Positions 22,588 to 31,961 are shown, numbered from the stretch's first letter. The stretch is DNA of 32,000 nucleotides from Chlamydiales bacterium (GCA_965261025.1 OZ253438.1:1170001-1202000), one strand, 5' to 3'. The notes: a model not told the origin generated them from the letters alone. Translations and numbers: made by a program.

Positions 22588-23341
22588 GTATGCTATTCAA
22601 AGGATTGTTCCTCCTTTTTTGTACCGCTTTTTATCTAAGGTAAGACTTCCTGAAGAAGGGCTTGATTTTACGAAATTTTTGCTAGCAAAATATGCAGTAA
22701 GAAGAGGAGGAAGTCTTATCGATGGTGGAGCCCATATAGGGTTTTATTCCAGGTGTTATGCCCAACTTTTAAAGAAAAAACCGGGTCGTCTTTTTTCTTT
22801 TGAACCGAACCCTTATCTTTTTCCTCTTTTGCAAAAGACTAGAGTTCTTCCCAAAGAAAAACATTTTTTTTTCCAAAAAGCTCTGTGTAAGACAAGTGGA
22901 GAAAAAAAAGCTTTTTTTGTGCGCCCCTTTTCTTTGGCAGAAGATAGCTCTTTAAAGCGCCCTTTAGAAAAAAAAGCCTTTAAAAGAATCGAAGTAGAAA
23001 GTTTTTGTCTGGATGATCTTTACAAGAGATATGAACTGAAAGATTGTAAGTTGGTAAAACTGGATGTAGAAGAAAACGAAGCTCTTGTTTTTGAGGGAGC
23101 TGCTCTTTTTTTACAAGAAGTTTCACCTTGGATAATCTTCGAATATACTCAAGAAGAAAAAAAAGAAAATCGTACTCTGCATATTTTGCAAGAAGGGGGA
23201 TACGTTTTTTTTGATTTACAGACCTTTGAGAAGGTAAGCTCTTCTTATAAAAGCCTATTAACAGATTTAGTAGCTGTTGCAAGGAAAGACGAGGAGGAGC
23301 TAAAAAATGTCCTAAGGTCTATTGAGTTCTTAACCGTTTAG
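22571..23341 (+). CDS. FkbM-family SAM-dependent methyltransferase
   Basis: LIDGGAHIGFYS (the FkbM 'DxGAxxG' motif), SFEPNP and VKLDVEENE. Overlaps the upstream GT4 gene by 17 nt. Confidence 0.7.
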   Translation: MGSFSKYAIQRIVPPFLYRFLSKVRLPEEGLDFTKFLLAKYAVRRGGSLIDGGAHIGFYSRCYAQLLKKKPGRLFSFEPNPYLFPLLQKTRVLPKEKHFFFQKALCKTSGEKKAFFVRPFSLAEDSSLKRPLEKKAFKRIEVESFCLDDLYKRYELKDCKLVKLDVEENEALVFEGAALFLQEVSPWIIFEYTQEEKKENRTLHILQEGGYVFFDLQTFEKVSSSYKSLLTDLVAVARKDEEELKNVLRSIEFLTV

Positions 23342-23368
23342 ACTTGCAGCAAAGGGATTTTCGAGGCT

Positions 23369-23989
23369 CTATTCTAAGCGAGAAAAGTTAGGTTTTTGAT
23401 GCTCGTATTGAATAAAATGATAAATTCTAAGGGCAGCTGTAAGCAAAACTAGGGAGCTAAACAGGAGCGTTATCAAAGGGAAAATACCCGGAAAAAGGAT
23501 CATTAAAGAGAAAAATAAAAACGCTTCTGCTCTTTCAATTAGGCCTGAGCTATAATGAAAACTTTTTTGGCCTGTATTTTCTGTAAAAATACCTACAACA
23601 AGAAATGAAGTAACGCAAATTAAGATGGAACCTAGCATAAGTAGGGAGTAGATTCCTCTGGTTTCAGGATGAAATAAAAAAAGAGCTAAAATCACAGAAA
23701 ATTCTACCACACGGTCGCTTATAATATCCAAAGCACTTCCCAAAGGAGAAGACTGGTTTTTTAGTCTTGCCAAAGTTCCATCTAGGGTATCTAAATAGCC
23801 AGAAAATAAAAGACAGATCAAACTTTTCCAGATCGATCCGGTGCTTATGGGTATTGCACTGAGAATTCCGATGAAACAGCTTGCCATAGTAAGATGAGAG
23901 GGAGATAGAAAAGACCAATTTTTTATTTGTTTTGCAAGGGGATCTACCAATAGAGATTGGTAAGGGCCTCGGAAGTATTTTTCTAGCAT
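23369..23989 (-). CDS. CDP-alcohol phosphatidyltransferase family protein
   Basis: Exact family signature D-x2-D-G-x2-A-R-x8-G-x3-D-x3-D in DTLDGTLARLKNQSSPLGSALDIISDRV. Multi-pass membrane protein of 206 aa. Its ATG overlaps the stop of the upstream fusion gene (ATGCTAG at 23983-23989). Confidence 0.85.
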   Translation of the reverse strand: MLEKYFRGPYQSLLVDPLAKQIKNWSFLSPSHLTMASCFIGILSAIPISTGSIWKSLICLLFSGYLDTLDGTLARLKNQSSPLGSALDIISDRVVEFSVILALFLFHPETRGIYSLLMLGSILICVTSFLVVGIFTENTGQKSFHYSSGLIERAEAFLFFSLMILFPGIFPLITLLFSSLVLLTAALRIYHFIQYEHQKPNFSRLE

Positions 23990-26118
23990 CTGGGGTTCCT
24001 TATTTTTGTTACTTTTTTCACTATAAAAGAGGCAACAGCAAGCAATCCTATAGCCAGCAGAGAGAGAATGAATTGCTTATTAAAAATAGCAGGAAAAGAA
24101 AAAGGATTGGCCTTATCAAGCGCTACTTTAATCCCTGCTCCCACTTGGGTATAAACGTAGGATCCAGGAAGGATTCCTAAAAAGGTAGTCCATAGGAAGG
24201 TAAGAAAAGATACCTGAAAAAAAGCGGCAGCCACATTAACAAGCCAAAAAGGAAAAAGCGGAATAAACCGCAAAAGTAGCAAATAACTCCAGGCATTTTT
24301 TTTGAATCCTTGTTCCATTTTTTGTAAAAAAGGCCCCGCTTTACGTCGAAGAATCTCGCCGAAAGCGGTTCGCGCAACAAAAAAAAGGATGGCAGAGCCT
24401 AAAGTGGCGCCAGTTACCACATAAAAAGTACTCAAAGGCATAGGAAAAAGAGCCCCTCCAATTAAGCTTAAGGCTCCAGCTATTGGTAAGGAGAGTCCTG
24501 TAGAAATTATATAGATTAATACAAAAGACAAAGAGGCTAATACAAAATGGGTATCAACAAAATACCTTATGTCAGCTTGTCTTTCTTTTACTATATCAAT
24601 TGTCAGATAGCTATGTATTCCAGTTAGGTAAATGCCTGCTATAAGCAGTAAAAGGATAAAAAGAGGGAGAAAACGTTTCCAGGTAACTGTTTGGAAAGGG
24701 TGTTTTAGCCAGGGTAAAAAAGTTTGTATTAACCAAAGATCTGCACTTTTTCGGATAGCCAAATTATAAGTGGGATAGGGATGAATTAATGAAGAAAGCT
24801 TTCGTAGAGAGATATTTTCTTTTGCAGCTAAACATAGCTCAGGAAGCATCTCTCCTGCTCTGGGACCCACGATAGTTGCACCGAGAATTTTACCGCGCCT
24901 TTTTTTTGTTATTACCTTAACAAACCCTTCCTTTCTTCCTGCAGTGATCGCCCGATCATTTTCGGTAAAGGGAACAGAATAAATAGCTACGTTTTGCCCA
25001 AATAATTCAGTAGCAGCTCTTTCTGAAAGGCCAAAGCAGGCTATTTCCGGGTCTGTAAAGGTAACACGTGGCATTAGGGGGTCTCTTAGCTTTTTTCTGA
25101 TGGGGGAAAGAAGGGAAAGAAGTACTTTTCTAGCTTGATTTTCGGCCGCATGGGTAAATTTGGGACCTTCTTCGACTACATCTCCAATAGCCCAAATATG
25201 TTTCTGAGATGTTCTTCCATATTTATCTACTTGTATACCTTTTTCAGAAAAAGCGATTCCTGCTGCTTTCAATTGAAGAGAATCCGTATTTGCTTTTCGT
25301 CCCACAGCAACAAAAAGAGCGTCAGAGGAAATAAACGTCTCTTCCTTTTCAGATTGTTTTATGATTAACGTAAATTTTCCCTCGGAATAGCTTACAGATT
25401 TTGTTTCGAATCCTAGAAACAACTCGACACCTTCCTTTTCCAAAGTTTTGGCAAGGATTTCCTGGGCTTCCGGCTCTTCTTTATTTAAAAGAGAGCCGTT
25501 TTTATGAATTTGAATGACGTGAGATCCTAGTCGTGAAAATGCTTGTGCCATTTCACATCCAACAGGTCCCCCTCCCAAGATAGAGATAGACTTGGGGATC
25601 CTATGTAGGGCGAAAAGAGTTTCGTTGGTTAAAAAAGGGGTTTCATATATTCCCGCAATATCGGGGATTAAAGCAGAAGATCCTGTTGCAATTACTATCT
25701 TTTCTCCATAAACTTCGTAAGGGATTTTTTCTCCCGTTTTTATTTGAATAAGGTGAGGAGCTGTAAAGCTTGCTGTTGCAGTAACAGTCTCTATTTTTTT
25801 TTCTTTAAGAAACTTAGGCTCCTCTTTTTTGCGTACAGAAGAGATGATTTGTCTAACTCTTTCGAGTACTTTTTTCGTATTCGTGGGACCAGAGACTCCT
25901 TCTAGTCCAAAATCTTTTGCATACTTGATTGCATGAGCGACTTGCGAGGAGGCAATAAATGATTTGCTAGGAATACAGCCCGAATTGGTACATTCACCTC
26001 CATAGGTTCCCCTCTCGATGAGCAAAACTTTTTTTCCCGCTTTTGCGGCTCCTGTTGCAATCACTAGCCCAGCAGAACCTGCTCCAATGACCACAATTTG
26101 GTATCGATCTTGAACCAT
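23983..26118 (-). CDS. Fusion protein: N-terminal class I pyridine-nucleotide-disulfide oxidoreductase (Lpd / mercuric-reductase-like) plus C-terminal DedA / TVP38-TMEM64 (SNARE-associated) membrane domain
   Basis: N-terminal part (about 24720-26118): VVIGAGSAGLV, redox disulfide GGECTNSGCIPSK, second Rossmann motif ILGGGPVGCEMAQ, WAIGDV, and dimerisation-domain HPYPTYN. C-terminal part (about 23986-24680): five or more TM segments with the DedA-type LLLLRFIPLFPFWLVNVAAAFF. It is a single uninterrupted 711-codon ORF. Confidence 0.85.
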   Translation of the reverse strand: MVQDRYQIVVIGAGSAGLVIATGAAKAGKKVLLIERGTYGGECTNSGCIPSKSFIASSQVAHAIKYAKDFGLEGVSGPTNTKKVLERVRQIISSVRKKEEPKFLKEKKIETVTATASFTAPHLIQIKTGEKIPYEVYGEKIVIATGSSALIPDIAGIYETPFLTNETLFALHRIPKSISILGGGPVGCEMAQAFSRLGSHVIQIHKNGSLLNKEEPEAQEILAKTLEKEGVELFLGFETKSVSYSEGKFTLIIKQSEKEETFISSDALFVAVGRKANTDSLQLKAAGIAFSEKGIQVDKYGRTSQKHIWAIGDVVEEGPKFTHAAENQARKVLLSLLSPIRKKLRDPLMPRVTFTDPEIACFGLSERAATELFGQNVAIYSVPFTENDRAITAGRKEGFVKVITKKRRGKILGATIVGPRAGEMLPELCLAAKENISLRKLSSLIHPYPTYNLAIRKSADLWLIQTFLPWLKHPFQTVTWKRFLPLFILLLLIAGIYLTGIHSYLTIDIVKERQADIRYFVDTHFVLASLSFVLIYIISTGLSLPIAGALSLIGGALFPMPLSTFYVVTGATLGSAILFFVARTAFGEILRRKAGPFLQKMEQGFKKNAWSYLLLLRFIPLFPFWLVNVAAAFFQVSFLTFLWTTFLGILPGSYVYTQVGAGIKVALDKANPFSFPAIFNKQFILSLLAIGLLAVASFIVKKVTKIRNPRC

Positions 26119-26177
26119 ATGTTTTTCTCACAGAACTGGGTTTATAAGGGATATATAGTTAGAGCGCTAGGAAAATA

Positions 26178-27524
26178 TCAAGAAGTTTTTATAAGGGTAG
26201 TTTCTAAAGAACCCTCCGTGCTTTTGAATATCGCTTGATTTTTCAAACAAAGTCCTAAGCAGAGTGCCGTATGAACCCAAAGGTAGTTTCGGAAAATATT
26301 TTGATTAAATTGAAGAACGCATAAGGAGATTAGAAGAGAAAGAAATAAAGCGATGATTCTATTTCTTTCTTGGAGGGGAAGTAGAGGATTTTCCACCGTT
26401 TTTTTGAAGACGTAATAAAGCGATAACCCCAGTAGGATAAAACCGAAAAAACCAAAAAGACCCAGACTTGCTAAAATCTCGGTAAGGACGTTGGTGGGAT
26501 CATAGGGAAGAACTTCTTCTAAAGTAACTTCTTGTAAGAAGGCTTGTTTTAAAAGTATTTCTTGATATAGATAAGGCCCAACTCCTCCTAATCCTACTCC
26601 TAAAAAGGGGTTTTCTAAAAAGACTTTCCAGGCGTTTACGATACCTTCCCATCGGGTGGAAAAACAACCATGGGAAGAGAAGTTTTTATTAAAGAATTTG
26701 AAAAAAGTGTCCGAGAAAATATGGGGAAAAAAAAACCAAAAAGAGCCAAAAATAAAGAACAAAAATCCAGAAAATAGGAGGAGTTTTTTTCGTAAAAAAC
26801 CGATGTATTTTTTCAAAAAAGTAAAAGAGCTAAAAAAAAGAGAGAGGCCGAGTAAAACAAAGTAAGCAAAAAATCCGCCTGTAGAAGTAGAGATTATAAG
26901 GAAAAGATTGATAAGAAAAAGCAGGAGAAAATTTTTCATAGAGAAGAAAGGCTTTTTTTCAAGCAGGAAGAAAAGGTTATGAAACATGACAAAAGAACCC
27001 ATATACAGAGCGTAAAAAGAAGGTTCATAGGTCCAAGCGTGGGGCCTGGCAAATTTTCCTAAAAATTGAGAGAGAAAGGGATCATATATTCCAAAAATAG
27101 AAAGAAAGAGTTGTAAAAAAGCATGCATTCCTACCAAAAGAAAGGAGAAAAAATAGATTCTGATAACTCTTTTTTCTTCTCCCTTCAAGACAAAGAGAAG
27201 GGGAAGGAGAAAGTAGCTTACGAATTGAAAACAATAAATACAAAAGTAGCCTAAAGAACGTAGAGGAAGAGGGCTAAAGAAGGAGGAGACAAAAAGGGAG
27301 AAAAAAATCCAAAGGGAAGCCATCCAAACAGGTTTAGGAAGAGAATACTGACGCAGCAAAGGGAAAAAAAGCAGCGTTAAAAATAAAGAGAAAAGATGGG
27401 TAGCTTTCAAGCGAAAAAAAACGAGTGTAATATAGAGCTTATCGGCAGAGAGGGTTACAAAGTAGATGAATAAAAAAAGGTAAGGAAGAGAAGGGGCTAT
27501 CCTATAAAGCTTTTTAGAAAACAT
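26178..27524 (-). CDS. O-antigen ligase / polymerase-like membrane protein (Wzy_C domain family)
   Basis: About 10-12 TM segments, very Phe/Leu-rich. The loop STRWEGIVNAWKVFLENPFLGVGLGGVGPY matches the Wzy_C/WaaL pattern (R..W......I...P..G.G.G). Its ATG (27522-27524) directly abuts the topA stop (TAG at 27525-27527). Confidence 0.7.
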   Translation of the reverse strand: MFSKKLYRIAPSLPYLFLFIYFVTLSADKLYITLVFFRLKATHLFSLFLTLLFFPLLRQYSLPKPVWMASLWIFFSLFVSSFFSPLPLRSLGYFCIYCFQFVSYFLLPLLFVLKGEEKRVIRIYFFSFLLVGMHAFLQLFLSIFGIYDPFLSQFLGKFARPHAWTYEPSFYALYMGSFVMFHNLFFLLEKKPFFSMKNFLLLFLINLFLIISTSTGGFFAYFVLLGLSLFFSSFTFLKKYIGFLRKKLLLFSGFLFFIFGSFWFFFPHIFSDTFFKFFNKNFSSHGCFSTRWEGIVNAWKVFLENPFLGVGLGGVGPYLYQEILLKQAFLQEVTLEEVLPYDPTNVLTEILASLGLFGFFGFILLGLSLYYVFKKTVENPLLPLQERNRIIALFLSLLISLCVLQFNQNIFRNYLWVHTALCLGLCLKNQAIFKSTEGSLETTLIKTS

Positions 27525-30011
27525 CTATTTCATATGGTTCTTCAAAAGGCCTGCTATTTTCATCATGTCTAGGGGGTCTTTTCCCAAAACCTTAGAAAGT
27601 TTTGCGTCAGGTAGAATAATTCTTTTATTTTGGGGATCTTGTAGATCCTGTTTTTTGATATACTCCCAAAGTTTTTTAACCACCTCTCCTCGACTAAGCT
27701 CCTTTTCTCCCGTTATCGCTTGTAGTTCTTTACTCAAAAGGAGTTTTCTTTGCATGCCTGCTTTTTTCCCTCTTGCTCTTTTTTTGTAGGCCGTTTTTAC
27801 GTGGTCTTTATATTTTTCCGCTAGATCTTCCAATTGATTTACAATCACATCACAGGCTGGAAAAAGGGAACAGGAATAAAAGGTTTTTCCAAAACGAGAC
27901 TTTCGTGGAGTAATTTTTCCACTGCACCCTTTAGCAGGGCAGTCTGGCATAGTGGAAAGATCCAATATCTCTTCCCCTTTTTTGGGGATATTTACGATTC
28001 CTTTACAATCAGGGTAATTAGAGCAGCCTAAAAAAGCGCCGTATCTTCCGTGGCGCAAAAGCATTTCTTTGTGACAAAGAGGACACTTTTGCTCCCAGTC
28101 AAACCCTTCTGCATAATCTTCTCTTTTAAAATCAAGCGCCTCTAAAGGAGCCGTGAACTTACACTCAGGATAGTTGGAGCAGCCATAAAAATATTTAGTT
28201 TTGGACCAAATTTTCTGGAGCTTGTGGCCACAAGTAGGACAGTCAATATCTGTGGTAACTTTGGGAACTACGGCTTCTTTTTCTGCTTTTTCTACCAAAG
28301 GGTTAAAGAGATGCCAAAAATCAGACAGAACTTTTCTCCAATCTTTTTGATCTTCTGCAATCAGCTCCAATTCATCTTCCATATTTGCTGTAAAGCTCGG
28401 ATTCATGATTAGCTTGAAATTATCTTCGAGCATCTGGGCAATTACTTTTCCGAGTTCCGTAGGTTTTAGGGCATGGTTTTCTTTCAGCGTATAATCCCTA
28501 CTTTGGATTTTATTCATAATAGAAGCATAAGTTGAAGGTCTTCCCACTCCAGACTTTTCCAACTCTTTTACTAAAGAAGCCTCTGTAAAGCGAGCAGGAG
28601 GTTTAGTAAAAGCTTGTGCCATGGTGAGATTTTTTAGCTGAAGAACCTGCTTTTGTTCAATAGGAGGAAGAAGCTGTTCCTTTTCCTGTTCTGTATCTTG
28701 TTTTTCCTCATAGATAGCCAGAAAACCTTTAAATTTCAGGGTAGATCCACCTGCCTTTAAAAGAATTTGCTGGTCTGTTTGAATTTCTGCAGAAACGGTA
28801 TCGTAAAGGGCTGCTACCATCTGAGAAGCCACAAATCTTCTCCAAATTAGAACGTAGAGTTTCAGCTGATCTTGATTTAGATAAGGCTTTATCTTCTGGG
28901 GAGGATAAGCAAGAGTAGTAGGTCGAATCGCTTCATGTGCCTCTTGTGCAGATTGTTTACTTTTATAAAAGGGGGGCTTTTCGGGGAGATATTCTTTCCC
29001 AAAAGTTTTTGTAATATACTCTCTTGCCTCTTTTTGTGCTTCAGGAGCTATTTGAACCGAGTCGGTTCTCATATAGGTAATAAGGCCTTCTGTTCCTTGT
29101 TTTCCTAGGTCGACTCCCTCATAAAGAGTTTGCGCGATCCCCATAGTTCTGGTGGGAGCAAAGCCAAAATAACGAGAGGCCTCTTGTTGTAGGGTAGAAG
29201 TTATAAAGGGAGGAGTCGGGTTTCTTTTTTTTTCTTTTTTTTCTACTTTTCCTACCTTATAGGAGGCTTTTTTCAGCCTCTTTGAAATACTTTGGGCAAT
29301 TTCTTCATTCGAGATTAAAAACAGATTTTCTTCCTTAGAAGGTTCTTTTGCTACTTTTTTTCCATCGATTTTATAGGGAAATGCCTCAAAAAACTTTTCC
29401 CCTTCTCTACCTTGTAAAAGGGCTTTTATGTTCCAGTATTCTACAGGGATGAAAACCTCAATTTCCCTTTCTCTGTCTACCACCATTTTTAAAGCAACAG
29501 ACTGCACTCTTCCTGCAGAAGAGCCTGATTTTCCCCTTCGGACCCTTCTTGTCAAAATAGGGGAAATTTTGTAGCCAACAATCCTATCTAAAATTCTTCT
29601 TGCCTGTTGTGCATTTACCAAGGAGAGATTGATGGAGCGAGGCTTTTCCAAGGCTTGTAAGACGGCATTTTTGGTGATAGAGTTGAAGGTAATTCTTTGC
29701 AGTTTTGTTTTTGAGGGAAGAAGTTTAGAGATATGCCAAGCAATCGCTTCTCCTTCTCTATCAGGATCAGGAGCTAGGTAGACAGAAGAGGCCCCTTTAG
29801 CAGCTTCTTTTAAATTTTTCACTACCTCTTTTTTATCGGGAAGCACCTCATATTTTGGTTCAAAATTATGTTCTATATCGATGCCAAAATTTTTCTGAGG
29901 AAGATCCCGGATATGTCCCACAGAAGAGGCAAATAAATACTTAGACCCTAAAAGTTTTTTTAGGGTCTTTATTTTTGCTGGGGACTCAACAATAATTAGC
30001 TTTTTTTGCAT
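27525..30011 (-). CDS. topA: DNA topoisomerase I (type IA) with three C-terminal Zn ribbons and a terminal SWIB/MDM2 domain
   Basis: TOPRIM KLIIVESPAKIKTLKK and DPDREGEAIAWH. GLITYMRTDS carries the catalytic Tyr. Zn ribbons are CPTCGH..GCSNYPECKF, CPLCHK..GCSNYPDCKG and CPAKGCSG..SCSLFPACD. The SWIB tail is LSRGEVVKKLWEYIKKQDLQDPQNKRIILPDAKLSKVLG. ATG 30011 (MQKKLIIVESPAK) is preferred over the track's TTG at 30068. Confidence 0.93.
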   Translation of the reverse strand: MQKKLIIVESPAKIKTLKKLLGSKYLFASSVGHIRDLPQKNFGIDIEHNFEPKYEVLPDKKEVVKNLKEAAKGASSVYLAPDPDREGEAIAWHISKLLPSKTKLQRITFNSITKNAVLQALEKPRSINLSLVNAQQARRILDRIVGYKISPILTRRVRRGKSGSSAGRVQSVALKMVVDREREIEVFIPVEYWNIKALLQGREGEKFFEAFPYKIDGKKVAKEPSKEENLFLISNEEIAQSISKRLKKASYKVGKVEKKEKKRNPTPPFITSTLQQEASRYFGFAPTRTMGIAQTLYEGVDLGKQGTEGLITYMRTDSVQIAPEAQKEAREYITKTFGKEYLPEKPPFYKSKQSAQEAHEAIRPTTLAYPPQKIKPYLNQDQLKLYVLIWRRFVASQMVAALYDTVSAEIQTDQQILLKAGGSTLKFKGFLAIYEEKQDTEQEKEQLLPPIEQKQVLQLKNLTMAQAFTKPPARFTEASLVKELEKSGVGRPSTYASIMNKIQSRDYTLKENHALKPTELGKVIAQMLEDNFKLIMNPSFTANMEDELELIAEDQKDWRKVLSDFWHLFNPLVEKAEKEAVVPKVTTDIDCPTCGHKLQKIWSKTKYFYGCSNYPECKFTAPLEALDFKREDYAEGFDWEQKCPLCHKEMLLRHGRYGAFLGCSNYPDCKGIVNIPKKGEEILDLSTMPDCPAKGCSGKITPRKSRFGKTFYSCSLFPACDVIVNQLEDLAEKYKDHVKTAYKKRARGKKAGMQRKLLLSKELQAITGEKELSRGEVVKKLWEYIKKQDLQDPQNKRIILPDAKLSKVLGKDPLDMMKIAGLLKNHMK

Positions 30012-30147
30012 ACTCTTTTCGAAATCAAACAAGAGGTTATTTTTAAGTGTTGTAGGACCTTTTGGCAAGAACTCTTTGTGATTTTTATGCTAATTTTTTT
30101 TTATCCTGCAAGAAAAAAGAGGCAATTTTTAAAAAAAGGTTTTTCCT
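30012..30147. promoter_or_regulatory. Divergent intergenic region between topA (minus) and the HExxH membrane-protein gene (plus)
   Basis: Back-to-back starts in very AT-rich sequence with a T9 run at 30094-30102. Promoters are inferred from gene arrangement only. Confidence 0.3.
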
Positions 30148-31004: not shown

Positions 31005-31961
31005 ATGACCCAGTTGATAGAGATAGAAGAGATAAAATCCCTTTCTCCTTCCGAAGCAGCCGATAGATCCTTAGAGCTTTGTAGAGGTTTGGAAAGAGGG
31101 GATATTCTTTTTTTCCCCAAGATCCCTTTCTCCTTTTTGGAAGAAGACGTAGCTTTTTTATTAAAGCAAAAGCAATCGGGCAAAAAAGGGAGAAAAAATG
31201 TAGCTTTCAAACCCCTTTTAGATAAGATCTCTAACCATGCAGGAGCTTGCCACGAAGAAAAAAAGAGGCTTCATGAGATAATGCGTGGTTTTTGCCATGA
31301 GGTAAATCTGATCTTATCAAAGCTACTTACTCCTTATGCGGCAAAATGGAAGATTGACTATGCAAGCTTTCGTCCCTTTCAGGAAAAGGGAAGGAATTTG
31401 CGTCTTACAGCAAGAAATGATTTACTACACTTTGATGCGTTTGCTTCTAGACCTATGCATGGGGATAGAATTCTTCGTTTTTTTGTAAATATCAATCCAA
31501 CTCTTTGTAGGAAGTGGATTACCGCTTCTTCTTTTGAAGAGACTTTTCAAAATTTTTTGAAAAACAGGGAAATTTCCCTTCCTAAAGCTGCCTATCACTT
31601 TTCTGTAAAATGGCGGGAAAGATGTAAAGGGTTAGCCAGGCATCTAGGGCTCCCTGTTACCCTACGCTCTCCCTATGATACCTTTATGCTACGCTTTCAT
31701 CATTTTTTGAAAAAAAATCAAAGGTTTCAAGAAAAAGTGGAGAAAAAACATTGGGAGTTTCCTCCTTTTTCCTGTTGGGCTGTTTTTACAGATCAGGTAA
31801 GTCATGCTGCCTTAGAAGGGCAATATGCTTTGGAGCAAACTTTTTTGGTCCCTAGAGAAGTTTTATTAAATCCAGAAAAAGCCCCTATTTCTGTTTTGGA
31901 AAGGCTTTCCAAAGAGGTAATGACCTCTAATTATGCTCTATCTCGGAGAGAAGTTTCCTAG
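31005..31961 (+). CDS. Kdo hydroxylase-like protein (KdoO family, Fe(II)/2-oxoglutarate-dependent dioxygenase)
   Basis: The N-terminal LERGDILFFPKIPF..LEEDVAFLL resembles the KdoO-family N-terminus as I remember it. There is an HxD in LLHFDAF and a distal His in QVSHAALEG (HxD...H facial triad). The size of 318 aa fits. SD AAGGAAGAG lies 4 nt before the ATG. The assignment is from memory of the family, not from a search. Confidence 0.55.
   Translation: MTQLIEIEEIKSLSPSEAADRSLELCRGLERGDILFFPKIPFSFLEEDVAFLLKQKQSGKKGRKNVAFKPLLDKISNHAGACHEEKKRLHEIMRGFCHEVNLILSKLLTPYAAKWKIDYASFRPFQEKGRNLRLTARNDLLHFDAFASRPMHGDRILRFFVNINPTLCRKWITASSFEETFQNFLKNREISLPKAAYHFSVKWRERCKGLARHLGLPVTLRSPYDTFMLRFHHFLKKNQRFQEKVEKKHWEFPPFSCWAVFTDQVSHAALEGQYALEQTFLVPREVLLNPEKAPISVLERLSKEVMTSNYALSRREVS

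Follow-up and report, generated by a model that had tools for sequence, protein, structure and literature searches.

A chlamydial fusion of a class I flavoprotein disulfide reductase with a COG0398-type DedA membrane domain and its linkage to a CDP-alcohol phosphatidyltransferase

Background

A stretch of 32,000 nucleotides from a Chlamydiales bacterium (GCA_965261025.1 OZ253438.1:1170001-1202000, hereafter referred to as the window) carries a single open reading frame (ORF) in which a flavoprotein disulfide reductase runs into a DedA-type membrane protein, and which overlaps a gene for a CDP-alcohol phosphatidyltransferase. Such an arrangement raises the questions of whether the fusion is genuine, how widely the three proteins are associated in bacteria and what they might accomplish together. 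The human scramblases TMEM41B and VMP1 have bacterial relatives in the DedA proteins of the COG0398 subfamily. The first-pass annotation of the window, made from the sequence alone, had proposed a redox-linked lipid-carrier or phospholipid head-group system. The domains, the relatives and the gene neighbourhoods of the locus were therefore analysed.

Methods

Domains were identified with Pfam and NCBIfam profiles, and an AlphaFold2 model of the fusion protein was compared with the PDB using Foldseek. Fused homologues were drawn from different assemblies and sources (NCBI, ENA, JGI and Logan), and the top 150 representatives were taken from 1.84 billion proteins. Gene neighbourhoods were examined in 80 DedA-centred loci of GTDB genomes and in the 40 transferase-centred metagenome loci with enough flank.

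Results and discussion

The fusion and its junction

The 711-codon ORF has an ATG start and no internal stops and is a genuine fusion of a class I flavoprotein disulfide reductase with a DedA membrane protein (Table 1). Pfam places Pyr_redox_2 at residues 6-329 (E=1.7e-59), Pyr_redox_dim at residues 349-456 (E=6e-29) and VTT_dom (PF09335) at residues 549-661 (E=1.6e-21), each match exceeding its own gathering score. The motifs quoted in the first-pass annotation are all present: GGECTNSGC at residues 40-48, HPYPTYN at residues 446-452 and RFIPLFPFWLVN at residues 617-628. The AlphaFold2 model has a mean pLDDT of 85.2 and a pTM of 0.70; a Foldseek search of the PDB with the full model recovered generic structures of pyridine-nucleotide-disulfide oxidoreductases (PNDRs), with no DedA structure in the best 50. 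No signal exceeding the shuffled expectation was obtained in a promoter and terminator scan of positions 23000-27700.

An assembly error or a frameshift that artificially joins two genes had been named at the outset as one way in which this reading could fail, and a single indel could indeed fuse the two parts because they are separate genes with a 4-nt overlap in many relatives. However, at least 26 independent full-length chlamydial fusions (665-735 aa, 46-66% identity, all with PF09335), originating from all four sources, share the same gap-free, continuous junction, WLxQTxLPxLKxPxKxxxWKRFLPL, and the junction is modelled as structured, with a helix at residues 449-472, a seven-residue connection and a transmembrane helix at residues 480-499 (pLDDT 70-90). 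An artefact can thus practically be dismissed. In six split loci, the residues equivalent to the junction surround an ATGA sequence in which the stop of the reductase gene overlaps the ATG of the DedA gene. The fusion originated by read-through of this overlapping stop and start in a PNDR>DedA operon.

Table 1. Features of the reductase-DedA fusion and the overlapping transferase gene (positions in the window)
Feature	Position	Strand	Basis
Fusion ORF, N-terminal PNDR and C-terminal DedA (stop codon included)	23983..26118	-	ORF listing, three Pfam domains, homologues, model
Reductase domain of the class I flavoprotein disulfide type, aa 1-456 (sites for FAD and NAD(P)H, dimerisation domain)	24751..26118	-	Pfam, NCBIfam, Foldseek
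Redox-active disulfide CTNSGC, Cys43...Cys48	25975..25992	-	Read from sequence; conservation in family
Reductase family-specific C-terminal helix and short linker, aa 457-479 (former gene junction)	24682..24750	-	Model, split operons
DedA/VTT membrane domain of COG0398 (YdjX/TVP38/TMEM41) type, aa 480-711	23986..24681	-	PF09335; YdjX/YdjZ similarity
Second re-entrant-loop motif, aa 617-628	24235..24270	-	Conservation in DedA alignments
Overlap ATGCTAG, 7 nt (transferase start, fusion stop)	23983..23989	-	Read from sequence
CDP-alcohol phosphatidyltransferase, putatively of the YnjF-like / inositol-phosphate-synthase-like branch, 206 aa	23369..23989	-	PF01066
CDP-OH catalytic motif D67-x2-D70-G-x2-A-R-x8-G84-x3-D88-x3-D92	23714..23791	-	Read from sequence

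The reductase domain

The N-terminal domain is a class I PNDR, with the hallmarks GAGSAG (residues 12-17), CTNSGC (residues 43-48) and GGGPVG (residues 182-187), a dimerisation domain, matches to Pyr_redox_2, Pyr_redox and Pyr_redox_dim that all exceed the Pfam cut-offs, and target-normalised Foldseek TM-scores of 0.88-0.94 against MerA and lipoamide dehydrogenase structures. The CxxxxC motif is conserved in 80-99% of the family members, whether fused in the same order, fused in the reverse order or split, and both GxGxxG motifs are also conserved across the family; this pattern, as expected for an active enzyme, suggests that the reductase is catalytically competent.

The best NCBIfam match is NF004991 (PRK06370.1-3), at 453.7 bits and below the cut-off of 620. 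The profile, 509 positions long, takes in a C-terminal extension, which the window reductase shares since the match spans profile positions 33-503. Six DedA-adjacent PNDRs from Alpha-, Gamma- and Zetaproteobacteria and Simkaniaceae also have NF004991 as their top match (445-478 bits) and, like the window domain, score about 100 bits higher on it than on the MerA and LipDH models. Judged by these profiles, the DedA-linked PNDRs probably form one NF004991-like reductase subfamily. Identities as dihydrolipoyl dehydrogenase (TIGR01350, 360.1 bits against a cut-off of 408.8) and as mercuric reductase MerA (TIGR02053, 350.0 against 454.45, with neither the C-terminal Cys pair nor the N-terminal extension) were rejected; the dimerisation domain leads straight into the DedA domain with no Cys pair between them. 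The interface domain of GR and LipDH carries an HPxxxE His-Glu catalytic dyad. In the window protein His446 is present (IHPYPTYN) with no Glu after it, and because the His before PYPT is replaced by Ala in most split proteobacterial members, as in MerA, the chemistry may differ within the family.

The DedA domain

The C-terminal domain matches PF09335 with 77.4 bits (gathering score 33.9) and shows the invariant G, P and R-x2-P-x-FPF-x3-N motif of the DedA superfamily. The R, P, FPF and N of RFIPLFPFWLVN are retained by every sequence in an alignment of 29 DedAs, standalone and fused, and in one of 27 fusions; no Cys is conserved in either alignment. It is similar to E. coli YdjX (E=2e-16) and YdjZ (E=1e-14), has no significant similarity to YqjA (E=0.5), and is 45-62% identical to standalone proteins named YdjX (TVP38/TMEM64 family) by JGI. 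Sequence comparison thus assigns it to the COG0398/TMEM41 type (YdjX, YdjZ, TVP38). A PDB sequence search with the domain gave no matches. To our knowledge, COG0398 DedA proteins still await a functional assignment, and we know of no bacterial member for which lipid scrambling has been shown.

The UptA/YghB/YqjA type (COG0586) was rejected on the missing similarity to YqjA and on missing key residues, UptA being judged via the residue criteria of PMC10127716 only. According to these, DedAs that flip undecaprenyl phosphate (UndP) have acidic side chains in re-entrant helix 1 together with a pair of Arg in helix 2, and COG0398 DedAs miss one or both of the basic residues in helix 2 (Todor et al. 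2023, PMC10127716). Re-entrant loop 1 of the window domain (LSLPIAGALSLIGGALFP) has no D or E, and loop 2 has a single Arg, R617. These observations bear on the undecaprenyl-phosphate link of the first-pass annotation, in which the DedA domain would recycle UndP for a Wzy-like polymerase and the O-antigen cluster next to it, the reductase being a redox add-on. The gene does lie just downstream, on the same strand, of an ORF with a Wzy_C match (26178..27524 (-), E=6.2e-12) within a large glycan-biosynthesis cluster. However, the domain is of the wrong type, its loop residues exclude UndP flipping by the above criteria, and none of the related loci examined has Wzy_C or TopA as a neighbour. Since this context is not conserved, the O-antigen and lipid-carrier reading fails and is very improbable; the coupling to the CDP-alcohol transferase that the first-pass annotation had noted is conserved.

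COG0398 is the DedA subfamily closest to the eukaryotic scramblases (PMC10127716; Okawa preprint); its members correlate with aerobic lifestyles and are reported essential in some Alphaproteobacteria (Todor et al. 2023, PMC10127716). PetA, the one bacterial DedA known to transport phospholipid, clusters with the UptA clade (PMC10193950), and function calls based on subfamily are therefore unreliable.

The CDP-alcohol phosphatidyltransferase

The ATG of the transferase overlaps the end of the fusion (...AGATGCTAGAAA...), as read in the first-pass annotation, and the transferase gene is translationally coupled to the fusion. The protein matches CDP-OH_P_transf (E=2.1e-14; PF01066, 54.6 against a cut-off of 22). 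The motif that defines the CDP-alcohol family, D-x2-D-G-x2-A-R-x8-G-x3-D-x3-D on TM2-TM3, is intact (DTLDGTLARLKNQSSPLGSALDIISD), and all of the 40 family members compared have D67, D70, G71, A74, R75, G84, D88 and D92. The ending ..DIISDR, accurately read earlier and set apart from that of PgsA, is not anomalous, because the full motif is intact and the M. tuberculosis PIP synthase likewise has D-x3-D-R (DATCDR). Identity as PgsA was itself rejected (TIGR00560, 24.5 bits against a cut-off of 109.1).

The top NCBIfam matches are the AIP synthase model NF040950 (77.6 against 180) and the PIP synthase model NF045883 (62.1 against 170). Inositol lipid synthesis, suggested by these matches and by a nearby SSF symporter (no matches in a PDB sequence search), was downgraded since all cut-offs are missed and the phosphate-binding Arg is missing: R155 of MtPIPS (ERPER), which binds the phosphate of inositol phosphate, aligns with a nearly invariant Ala156 (IERAEAF). 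Another Arg, R188, is nearly invariant and may be a counterpart of MtPIPS R195. The transferase is 49% identical to a homologue on a Legionella plasmid, itself 29% identical to E. coli YnjF, and 31% identical to YnjF (E=4e-16), which has the same length of 206 aa; the YnjF-like branch has no curated definition, and the assignment, a tentative one, was judged by similarity and by gene neighbourhood with COG0398 DedAs.

Distribution and gene neighbourhood

The fusion joins two genes whose pairing is widely distributed among bacteria and already noted in the literature, PNDR being the commonest fusion partner of COG0398 DedAs (Todor et al. 2023, PMC10127716). Fused reductase and DedA occur in the window order in 13-18 and in the reverse order in 30 of the top 150 representatives; ten same-order representative fusions lie at 36-41% from the nearest taxon-labelled reductase by best-hit comparison to labelled loci. 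The domain order, which the first-pass annotation had called reversed, is opposite to that of the annotated bifunctional proteins, whose membrane domain is N-terminal as it had stated, but it is not unique. The architecture also proved common, which the annotation had allowed for; the searchable literature contains no characterised precedent for the fusion, as surmised, and nothing functional beyond Todor 2023.

The 80 DedA-centred loci, from several phyla, include 27 with PNDR>DedA, 33 with DedA>PNDR and one fusion, so that the two are separate adjacent genes in 60. Thirteen of the 80 also contain the transferase, which directly follows on the same strand in 12 analysed loci (a set that includes loci beyond the 80). 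In the reverse direction, 30 of the 40 transferase-centred loci contain DedA and/or PNDR, about 25 directly adjacent and in both operon orders. The link of the transferase to the pair is thus strong in both directions. The transferase gene is found with the pair in PVC bacteria, in Legionellales and on enterobacterial plasmids; since most Proteobacteria have the pair without it, the core job of the pair cannot depend on the lipid that it makes.

MsrA and MsrB genes neighbour related loci, and AhpD-like, DUF547, ECF sigma and bufferin copper-stress genes or clusters lie near the module on Legionella, Burkholderia and Klebsiella plasmids. The function of bufferins is described in PMC11626156; DedA, PNDR or CDP-OH neighbours receive no mention in the papers on bufferins and the GIG operon. 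Recurrent alphaproteobacterial neighbours (yidC, rnpA, engB, argB) were set aside as housekeeping synteny.

Probable function

From these associations we infer, tentatively and with a likelihood slightly short of even, a lipid module in which a synthase works together with a flippase and an NAD(P)H reductase is tethered to the membrane. The transferase would make a phospholipid at the cytoplasmic leaflet, probably from CDP-diacylglycerol and an acceptor, possibly imported, that is unlikely to be inositol phosphate, and the DedA domain would equilibrate it to the outer leaflet. The reductase, presumably a homodimer like other class I enzymes, would be anchored by its C-terminal helix and by TM1 to the cytoplasmic face of the membrane and, using NAD(P)H and the CxxxxC disulfide, would keep a membrane-associated substrate reduced, the whole module serving an accessory envelope redox or metal-stress function. 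We know of no class I disulfide reductase that acts on a phospholipid, which counts against this proposal, as do the many pairs without the transferase, the want of a known lipid-scrambling bacterial COG0398 DedA, the position of PetA and the replacement of the His before PYPT. A bolder version, which we consider quite unlikely, would make the reductase, the COG0398 DedA and the YnjF-family transferase an unrecognised, widespread envelope pathway, extending from E. coli ydjX-ynjF via plasmid islands to chlamydiae: a new phospholipid head group would be built from an alcohol imported through an SSF symporter (PVC bacteria) or a YnjBCD-type ABC importer (enterobacteria) and flipped outward, and the lipid, or whatever it captures, kept reduced with NAD(P)H, in copper or oxidant defence.

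The relationship of the reductase to MerA (5x1y, 237 bits; TIGR02053 second or third best match), with which it shares a P-Y-x-T motif and many members of its family also the Ala before that motif, raises another explanation. Following the logic of MerT/MerA or RclABC, the DedA domain would move a small redox-active solute (a metal ion such as Cu or Hg, selenite/tellurite or a low-molecular-weight disulfide) that the tethered reductase reduces with NAD(P)H, the transferase being accessory. The reverse-order fusions on Burkholderia and Klebsiella plasmids directly follow a DUF2282/DUF692/DoxX bufferin copper-stress cluster and have ECF sigma/anti-sigma and AhpD-like genes nearby, E. coli ynjABCD, adjoining ydjXYZ, is up on BaeR overexpression (PMC2731931), and the pair is widespread without the transferase. 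Set against these are the missing C-terminal Cys pair and NmerA domain, the MerA score below its cut-off, a DedA domain that has no conserved Cys for metal relay and belongs to the subfamily closest to lipid scramblases, and the strong transferase linkage, which together leave solute reduction rather unlikely.

The reductase could also be a sensing or regulatory partner of the DedA scramblase, which it would gate according to the redox state of NAD(P)H/NAD(P)+ or of thiols, with no dedicated substrate turnover. Both domain orders and split forms are tolerated, and therefore co-localisation rather than a fixed catalytic geometry seems to matter; the correlation with aerobic lifestyles noted above would also fit. 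However, the strict conservation of the redox disulfide and of the two nucleotide sites is what would be expected for an active enzyme, and we know of no class I PNDR that serves as a sensor. Such a role is decidedly improbable.

Whichever role applies, the COG0398 DedAs go together with one particular kind of flavoprotein disulfide reductase, next to which they are encoded in three quarters of the sampled loci and to which they are fused in both orders; several lineages add a specific CDP-alcohol phosphatidyltransferase. This offers experimenters a defined three-protein unit with tractable hosts (E. coli, Legionella or Klebsiella plasmids, Sinorhizobium). The window gene is one ordinary member of the family.

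Comparison with known systems

MerA with MerT/MerC and RclA with RclB/RclC are class I PNDRs encoded with an inner-membrane protein for stress defence, and MerA is among the closest solved structures to the window reductase. However, the latter has no C-terminal Cys pair or NmerA and falls below the MerA and RclA model cut-offs, and the membrane partner in those systems belongs to a family different from DedA. The best curated and structural matches of the transferase are PgsA1/PIPS and archaetidylinositol-phosphate synthase, which have the same catalytic motif including D-x3-D-R; it differs in scoring far below their cut-offs and in the Ala at the position of MtPIPS R155.

DedA domains have been found fused to CDP-OH phosphatidyltransferase, LPG synthase and PLD (Roney & Rudner 2023, PMC10193950). 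There, as in the window, DedA is tied physically or genetically to a phospholipid-making enzyme, which is the reason for invoking a synthase-plus-flippase logic; in the window, DedA is fused to the reductase, and the synthase has a gene of its own that overlaps the fusion.

The split PNDR>DedA(>CDP-OH) operons of Chlamydiota, Verrucomicrobiota and Aerophobetes, which include five of the six split loci above, encode orthologous proteins (460-540 bits for the reductase and 178-236 bits for DedA against the window domains) with the same gene order and downstream transferase, but as two genes with the ATGA overlap instead of one ORF. The NCBI 'bifunctional TVP38/TMEM64 family protein/FAD-dependent oxidoreductase' corresponds to the PF09335+PF07992+PF02852 architecture noted by Todor et al. 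2023. Examples on plasmids of Burkholderia thailandensis (WP_082256000.1) and Klebsiella (WP_040063690.1), uncharacterised like the window protein, are 35-36% identical to it over about 480 aa of reductase and 30-33% in the DedA domain, and the Klebsiella gene has a CDP-alcohol transferase in the same gene run, as in the window. They differ in their N-terminal DedA and in their plasmid loci behind bufferin/DoxX clusters.

In E. coli K-12, the run ydjX-ydjY-ydjZ-ynjA-ynjBCD-ynjE combines the COG0398 DedAs YdjX and YdjZ with an AhpD-like redox protein, and ynjF, nearby on the opposite strand, encodes a 206-aa CDP-alcohol transferase that resembles that of the window. The region, whose products are all uncharacterised, differs in having no PNDR, and its ABC transporter, YdjY and YnjE are without counterparts in the window. 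The Klebsiella plasmid island, with an ABC substrate-binding protein 64% identical to YnjB and a transferase 48% identical to YnjF, bridges the E. coli and the fusion contexts.

Domain organisation and distribution of the fusion

The fusion in the window joins a class I flavoprotein disulfide reductase (PNDR) to a C-terminal DedA/VTT membrane domain. It is encoded by one unbroken reading frame, as the first-pass annotation had claimed, and its three Pfam domains are well defined (see table). The sequence motifs quoted in that annotation were all found in the fusion or in the CDP-alcohol phosphatidyltransferase (hereafter the transferase) encoded directly downstream, the ATG of which does overlap the fusion stop, within ...AGATGCTAGAAA.... 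The nearest homologues of both proteins belong to Simkaniaceae and other Chlamydiota MAGs.

Features of the window that bear on the fusion and its surroundings
Feature	Position	Strand	Details
Fusion	23983..26118	-	Single uninterrupted ORF, 711 codons
Pyr_redox_2	fusion aa 6-329	-	Pfam E=1.7e-59, above gathering score
Pyr_redox_dim	fusion aa 349-456	-	Pfam E=6e-29, above gathering score
DedA/VTT PF09335	fusion aa 549-661	-	Pfam E=1.6e-21, above gathering score
CDP-alcohol phosphatidyltransferase	23369..23989	-	206 aa, Pfam match
Wzy_C-type polymerase/ligase gene	26178-27524	-	Upstream of fusion
TopA-SWIB (DNA topoisomerase I, three zinc ribbons, C-terminal SWIB)	27525-30068	-	NF004966 1308 bits, cut-off 868
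Glycan-biosynthesis cluster	412-23341, 26178-27524, 31005-31961		Fills most of the window

A full HMMER pass was made over 1.84 billion cluster representatives, and the domain orders were read from the best 150 matches. These comprise 13 clear and five weaker fusions of the same order (PNDR N-terminal, DedA C-terminal; 31-65% identity) and 30 of the reverse order, the remainder being standalone reductases. The domain order of the window is thus not unique; the architecture is common and this order a minority variant. For proteins of the reverse order NCBI uses the name 'bifunctional TVP38/TMEM64 family protein/FAD-dependent oxidoreductase'; they are annotated on 48 Burkholderia plasmids and occur also on plasmids of Klebsiella, Salmonella, Providencia, Citrobacter and E. 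coli, and the Burkholderia and Klebsiella proteins bear out the first-pass annotation in that proteins so named carry the membrane domain at the N-terminus. PF07992 and PF02852 are the commonest fusion partners of the COG0398 DedAs (Todor et al. 2023, PMC10127716), and no function is assigned to the PNDR-DedA architecture in the literature searchable here.

Origin of the fusion

The fusion is almost certainly genuine and derived from a conserved module. An identical protein is on record from a 1.42-Mb contig, 26 further full-length relatives (665-735 aa, 46-66% identity), each with PF09335, were found in NCBI, ENA, JGI and Logan assemblies, and the mean column identity through the junction is 65% across the aligned full-length fusions. 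In split relatives, the reductase ends in ...AADLWLTQTxL..K, its stop codon and the ATG of DedA overlap (ATGA), and the DedA begins with M..WK(R/K)(F/W)(L/I)P, while the fusion proteins are continuous through the residues matching this stop/start region. As the junction residues of the split and fused forms match, the fusion arose when a PNDR>DedA operon with translational coupling was read through. An AlphaFold2 model based on a 27-sequence alignment (mean pLDDT 85.2, pTM 0.70) has a helix (449-472), a seven-residue connection and a TM helix (480-499) at the junction, which is predicted to be structured and not a floppy linker.

The reductase-DedA gene pair

The main value of the analysis lies in the conserved reductase-DedA(-transferase) unit, less so in this one gene. 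The DedA domain was aligned with standalone relatives, and GTDB species genomes searched with this alignment yielded 80 loci, from Chlamydiota, Verrucomicrobiota, Victivallales, Aerophobetes and Alpha-, Gamma- and Zetaproteobacteria. By ORF/phmmer analysis, 60 of them have the reductase gene right beside DedA on the same strand (27 PNDR>DedA, 33 DedA>PNDR); in the others it is fused (1), nearby (2) or absent (17). The pairing is ancient. Six DedA-adjacent reductases from five lineages match NF004991 best among NCBIfam models (445-478 bits, the next family being about 100 bits lower), as does the reductase domain of the window (453.7 bits); judged by these profile matches, the DedA-linked reductases constitute one subfamily dedicated to DedA. 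Across 135 fused and split members, the redox disulfide (CxxxxC), the two nucleotide-binding motifs and the P-Y-P-T motif are kept, and a C-terminal Cys pair is absent. The residue before PYPT is His in chlamydial fusions and Ala in most proteobacterial members, and the NAD(P)H β2 strand ends with Glu in Proteobacteria and with His-Arg/Lys in chlamydiae, the latter hinting at NADPH use by the chlamydial reductase.

A second, more divergent DedA lies directly beside the pair in several loci (L012 6-662, L015 5842-6540, L020 5861-6571, L021 8797-9522, L042 7277-7972), so that Verrucomicrobia and a single chlamydial MAG show the order DedA2>PNDR>DedA. E. coli, too, has two COG0398 DedAs, YdjX and YdjZ, and two DedAs at one locus may form a heteromeric DedA. 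Five alphaproteobacterial loci have a same-strand DUF547 gene directly upstream of DedA>PNDR, and 13 alphaproteobacterial loci, as well as S. meliloti pSymB, have a histidine kinase gene after the pair (loci showing these neighbours include L089 7087-7980, L057, L054, L072, L084 and L045).

The CDP-alcohol transferase

The pair is often joined by a third gene, that of a specific CDP-alcohol transferase. This gene comes after the fused or split pair in the window and in the related loci L001, L004, L007 and L008. Of the 80 genome loci, 13 have it (Chlamydiota, Verrucomicrobiota, Aerophobetes, Victivallales and Berkiella), and overlaps of 4-10 nt are usual. In a reverse test, 80 metagenome loci were collected around homologues of the transferase, and those with an upstream flank of 2.3 kb or more, 40 in all, were counted: DedA and/or the reductase is present in 30, with PNDR>DedA>transferase (DedA directly adjacent) in 14-15 and DedA>PNDR>transferase (reductase directly adjacent) in 10. 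Recurrent companions in the PVC loci are MsrA/MsrB and an SSF symporter. At L001 (10421-14136), in the Simkaniaceae MAG that is the closest relative, the fusion-transferase-SSF unit adjoins menaquinone-type genes (UbiE-like methyltransferase, chorismate-binding enzyme, MenD-like TPP enzyme), which, seen in this one genome, may be a coincidence.

The catalytic motif of the transferase is intact, and invariant in 40 homologues. Among curated models it scores highest with archaetidylinositol-phosphate synthase (77.6 bits, cut-off 180) and PIP synthase (62.1, cut-off 170), the PgsA model giving only 24.5, and its best structural matches are IPCT/DIPPS and PIP synthases. Identification as a PIP synthase was not adopted, since the scores lie under the cut-offs and MtPIPS R155, the Arg responsible for binding the phosphate group of the inositol phosphate substrate (PMC4634129), aligns with a nearly invariant Ala. 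The transferase is 49% identical to its Legionella plasmid homologue and about 31% identical to E. coli YnjF, which has the same length.

DedA subtype and surroundings of the fusion

The DedA domain shares 45-62% identity with standalone proteins named YdjX (TVP38/TMEM64 family) by JGI and 32% with E. coli YdjX (E=2e-16); it also aligns with E. coli YdjZ (E=1e-14) and gives no significant alignment with E. coli YqjA (E=0.5). Re-entrant loop 1 is without an acidic residue and loop 2 has one Arg only, which excludes the undecaprenyl-phosphate-flippase type by the criteria of Todor 2023 (PMC10127716); the loop features fit the subfamily nearest the eukaryotic scramblases (PMC10127716; Okawa preprint). 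The Wzy, TopA and glycan-cluster context was not found in any related locus examined. Given the YdjX-type DedA, its loop residues and the non-conserved neighbours, the undecaprenyl-phosphate link of the first-pass annotation and an O-antigen role are not supported.

TopA-SWIB, which matches the NCBI family 'DNA topoisomerase I/SWI domain fusion protein', has its stop abutting the start of the Wzy-like gene; this topoisomerase-SWIB fusion is a chlamydial hallmark and served here as a marker of Chlamydiota. The glycan-biosynthesis cluster, in a seemingly chlamydial genome, encodes a DmpF/DmpG-like aldolase-dehydrogenase, HpcH aldolase, SDR, TPP enzyme, GT2, GDP-mannose 4,6-dehydratase, epimerases, a sugar C-methyltransferase, GHMP kinase and nucleotidyltransferase, two GT4s, FkbM methyltransferase, the Wzy_C-type polymerase/ligase and Kdo hydroxylase. 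Chlamydiota LPS is usually described as truncated, and an O-antigen-like cluster with a possible branched/methylated sugar pathway would be unusual for Chlamydiota.

Probable function

The reductase, by its sequence a catalytically complete NAD(P)H disulfide reductase, precedes a YdjX-type DedA in one polypeptide. As it has no signal peptide, it is presumably cytoplasmic, and the existence of fusions in either order requires, in the inferred topology, that the N- and C-termini of DedA lie on the cytoplasmic side. We tentatively propose that the transferase would make a phospholipid on the inner leaflet for the DedA domain to equilibrate across the membrane, and that the reductase, at the membrane surface through the family-specific C-terminal helix, would keep a membrane-associated substrate reduced. 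Against this mechanism count the occurrence of the pair without the transferase in most Proteobacteria and the fact that we know of no demonstrated activity for any bacterial COG0398 protein; the main rival, a MerT/MerA-like system that transports and reduces a small solute, is itself unlikely. DedA-CDP-OH transferase fusions provide a precedent for linking DedA to lipid synthesis (Roney & Rudner 2023, PMC10193950), and a further point against the mechanism is PetA, which shows that predictions from DedA subfamily can mislead (PMC10193950). A redox-linked phospholipid module, as yet uncharacterised, is the plausible part of the earlier proposal, the lipid-carrier part having failed on DedA subtype and neighbours. 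With AhpD-like, MsrAB, ECF-sigma and copper-stress genes recurring around it, the module may serve in envelope redox or metal stress.

Comparison with plasmid islands and E. coli

Plasmid clusters of the bufferin type (DUF2282/DUF692/DUF2063-like/DoxX; copper-stress RiPP) lie directly ahead of or beside reverse-order fusions or the split pair on Klebsiella (L096), Burkholderia (L093 3465-8094) and Legionella (L094) plasmids, accompanied by AhpD-like, ECF sigma/anti-sigma and YnjBCD-like ABC transporter genes; the bufferin papers examined make no mention of DedA-PNDR neighbours. The Legionella conjugative plasmid carries DedA>PNDR>transferase>DUF547>...>AhpD-like (DUF547 at L094 7714-8553). On the Klebsiella plasmid NZ_CP092407 (L096 5141-15219), the order is bufferin genes>DoxX>DedA-PNDR fusion>FAD oxidoreductase>YnjBCD-like ABC transporter>YnjF-like transferase, and genes for an ECF sigma factor and an AhpD-like protein lie close by. 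The substrate-binding protein of this transporter shares 64% identity with YnjB, and the transferase shares 48% with YnjF.

In E. coli K-12 (NC_000913.3, 1833401-1841403; L090 5402-8064 and L091 2784-3404), ydjX-ydjY-ydjZ-ynjA (AhpD-like)-ynjBCD-ynjE form one run, ynjE encoding a sulfurtransferase, and ynjF, the gene of an uncharacterised CDP-alcohol transferase, lies near it on the opposite strand. A PNDR is absent from this ydjX-ynjF region, the gene set of which corresponds to that of the plasmid islands minus the reductase.
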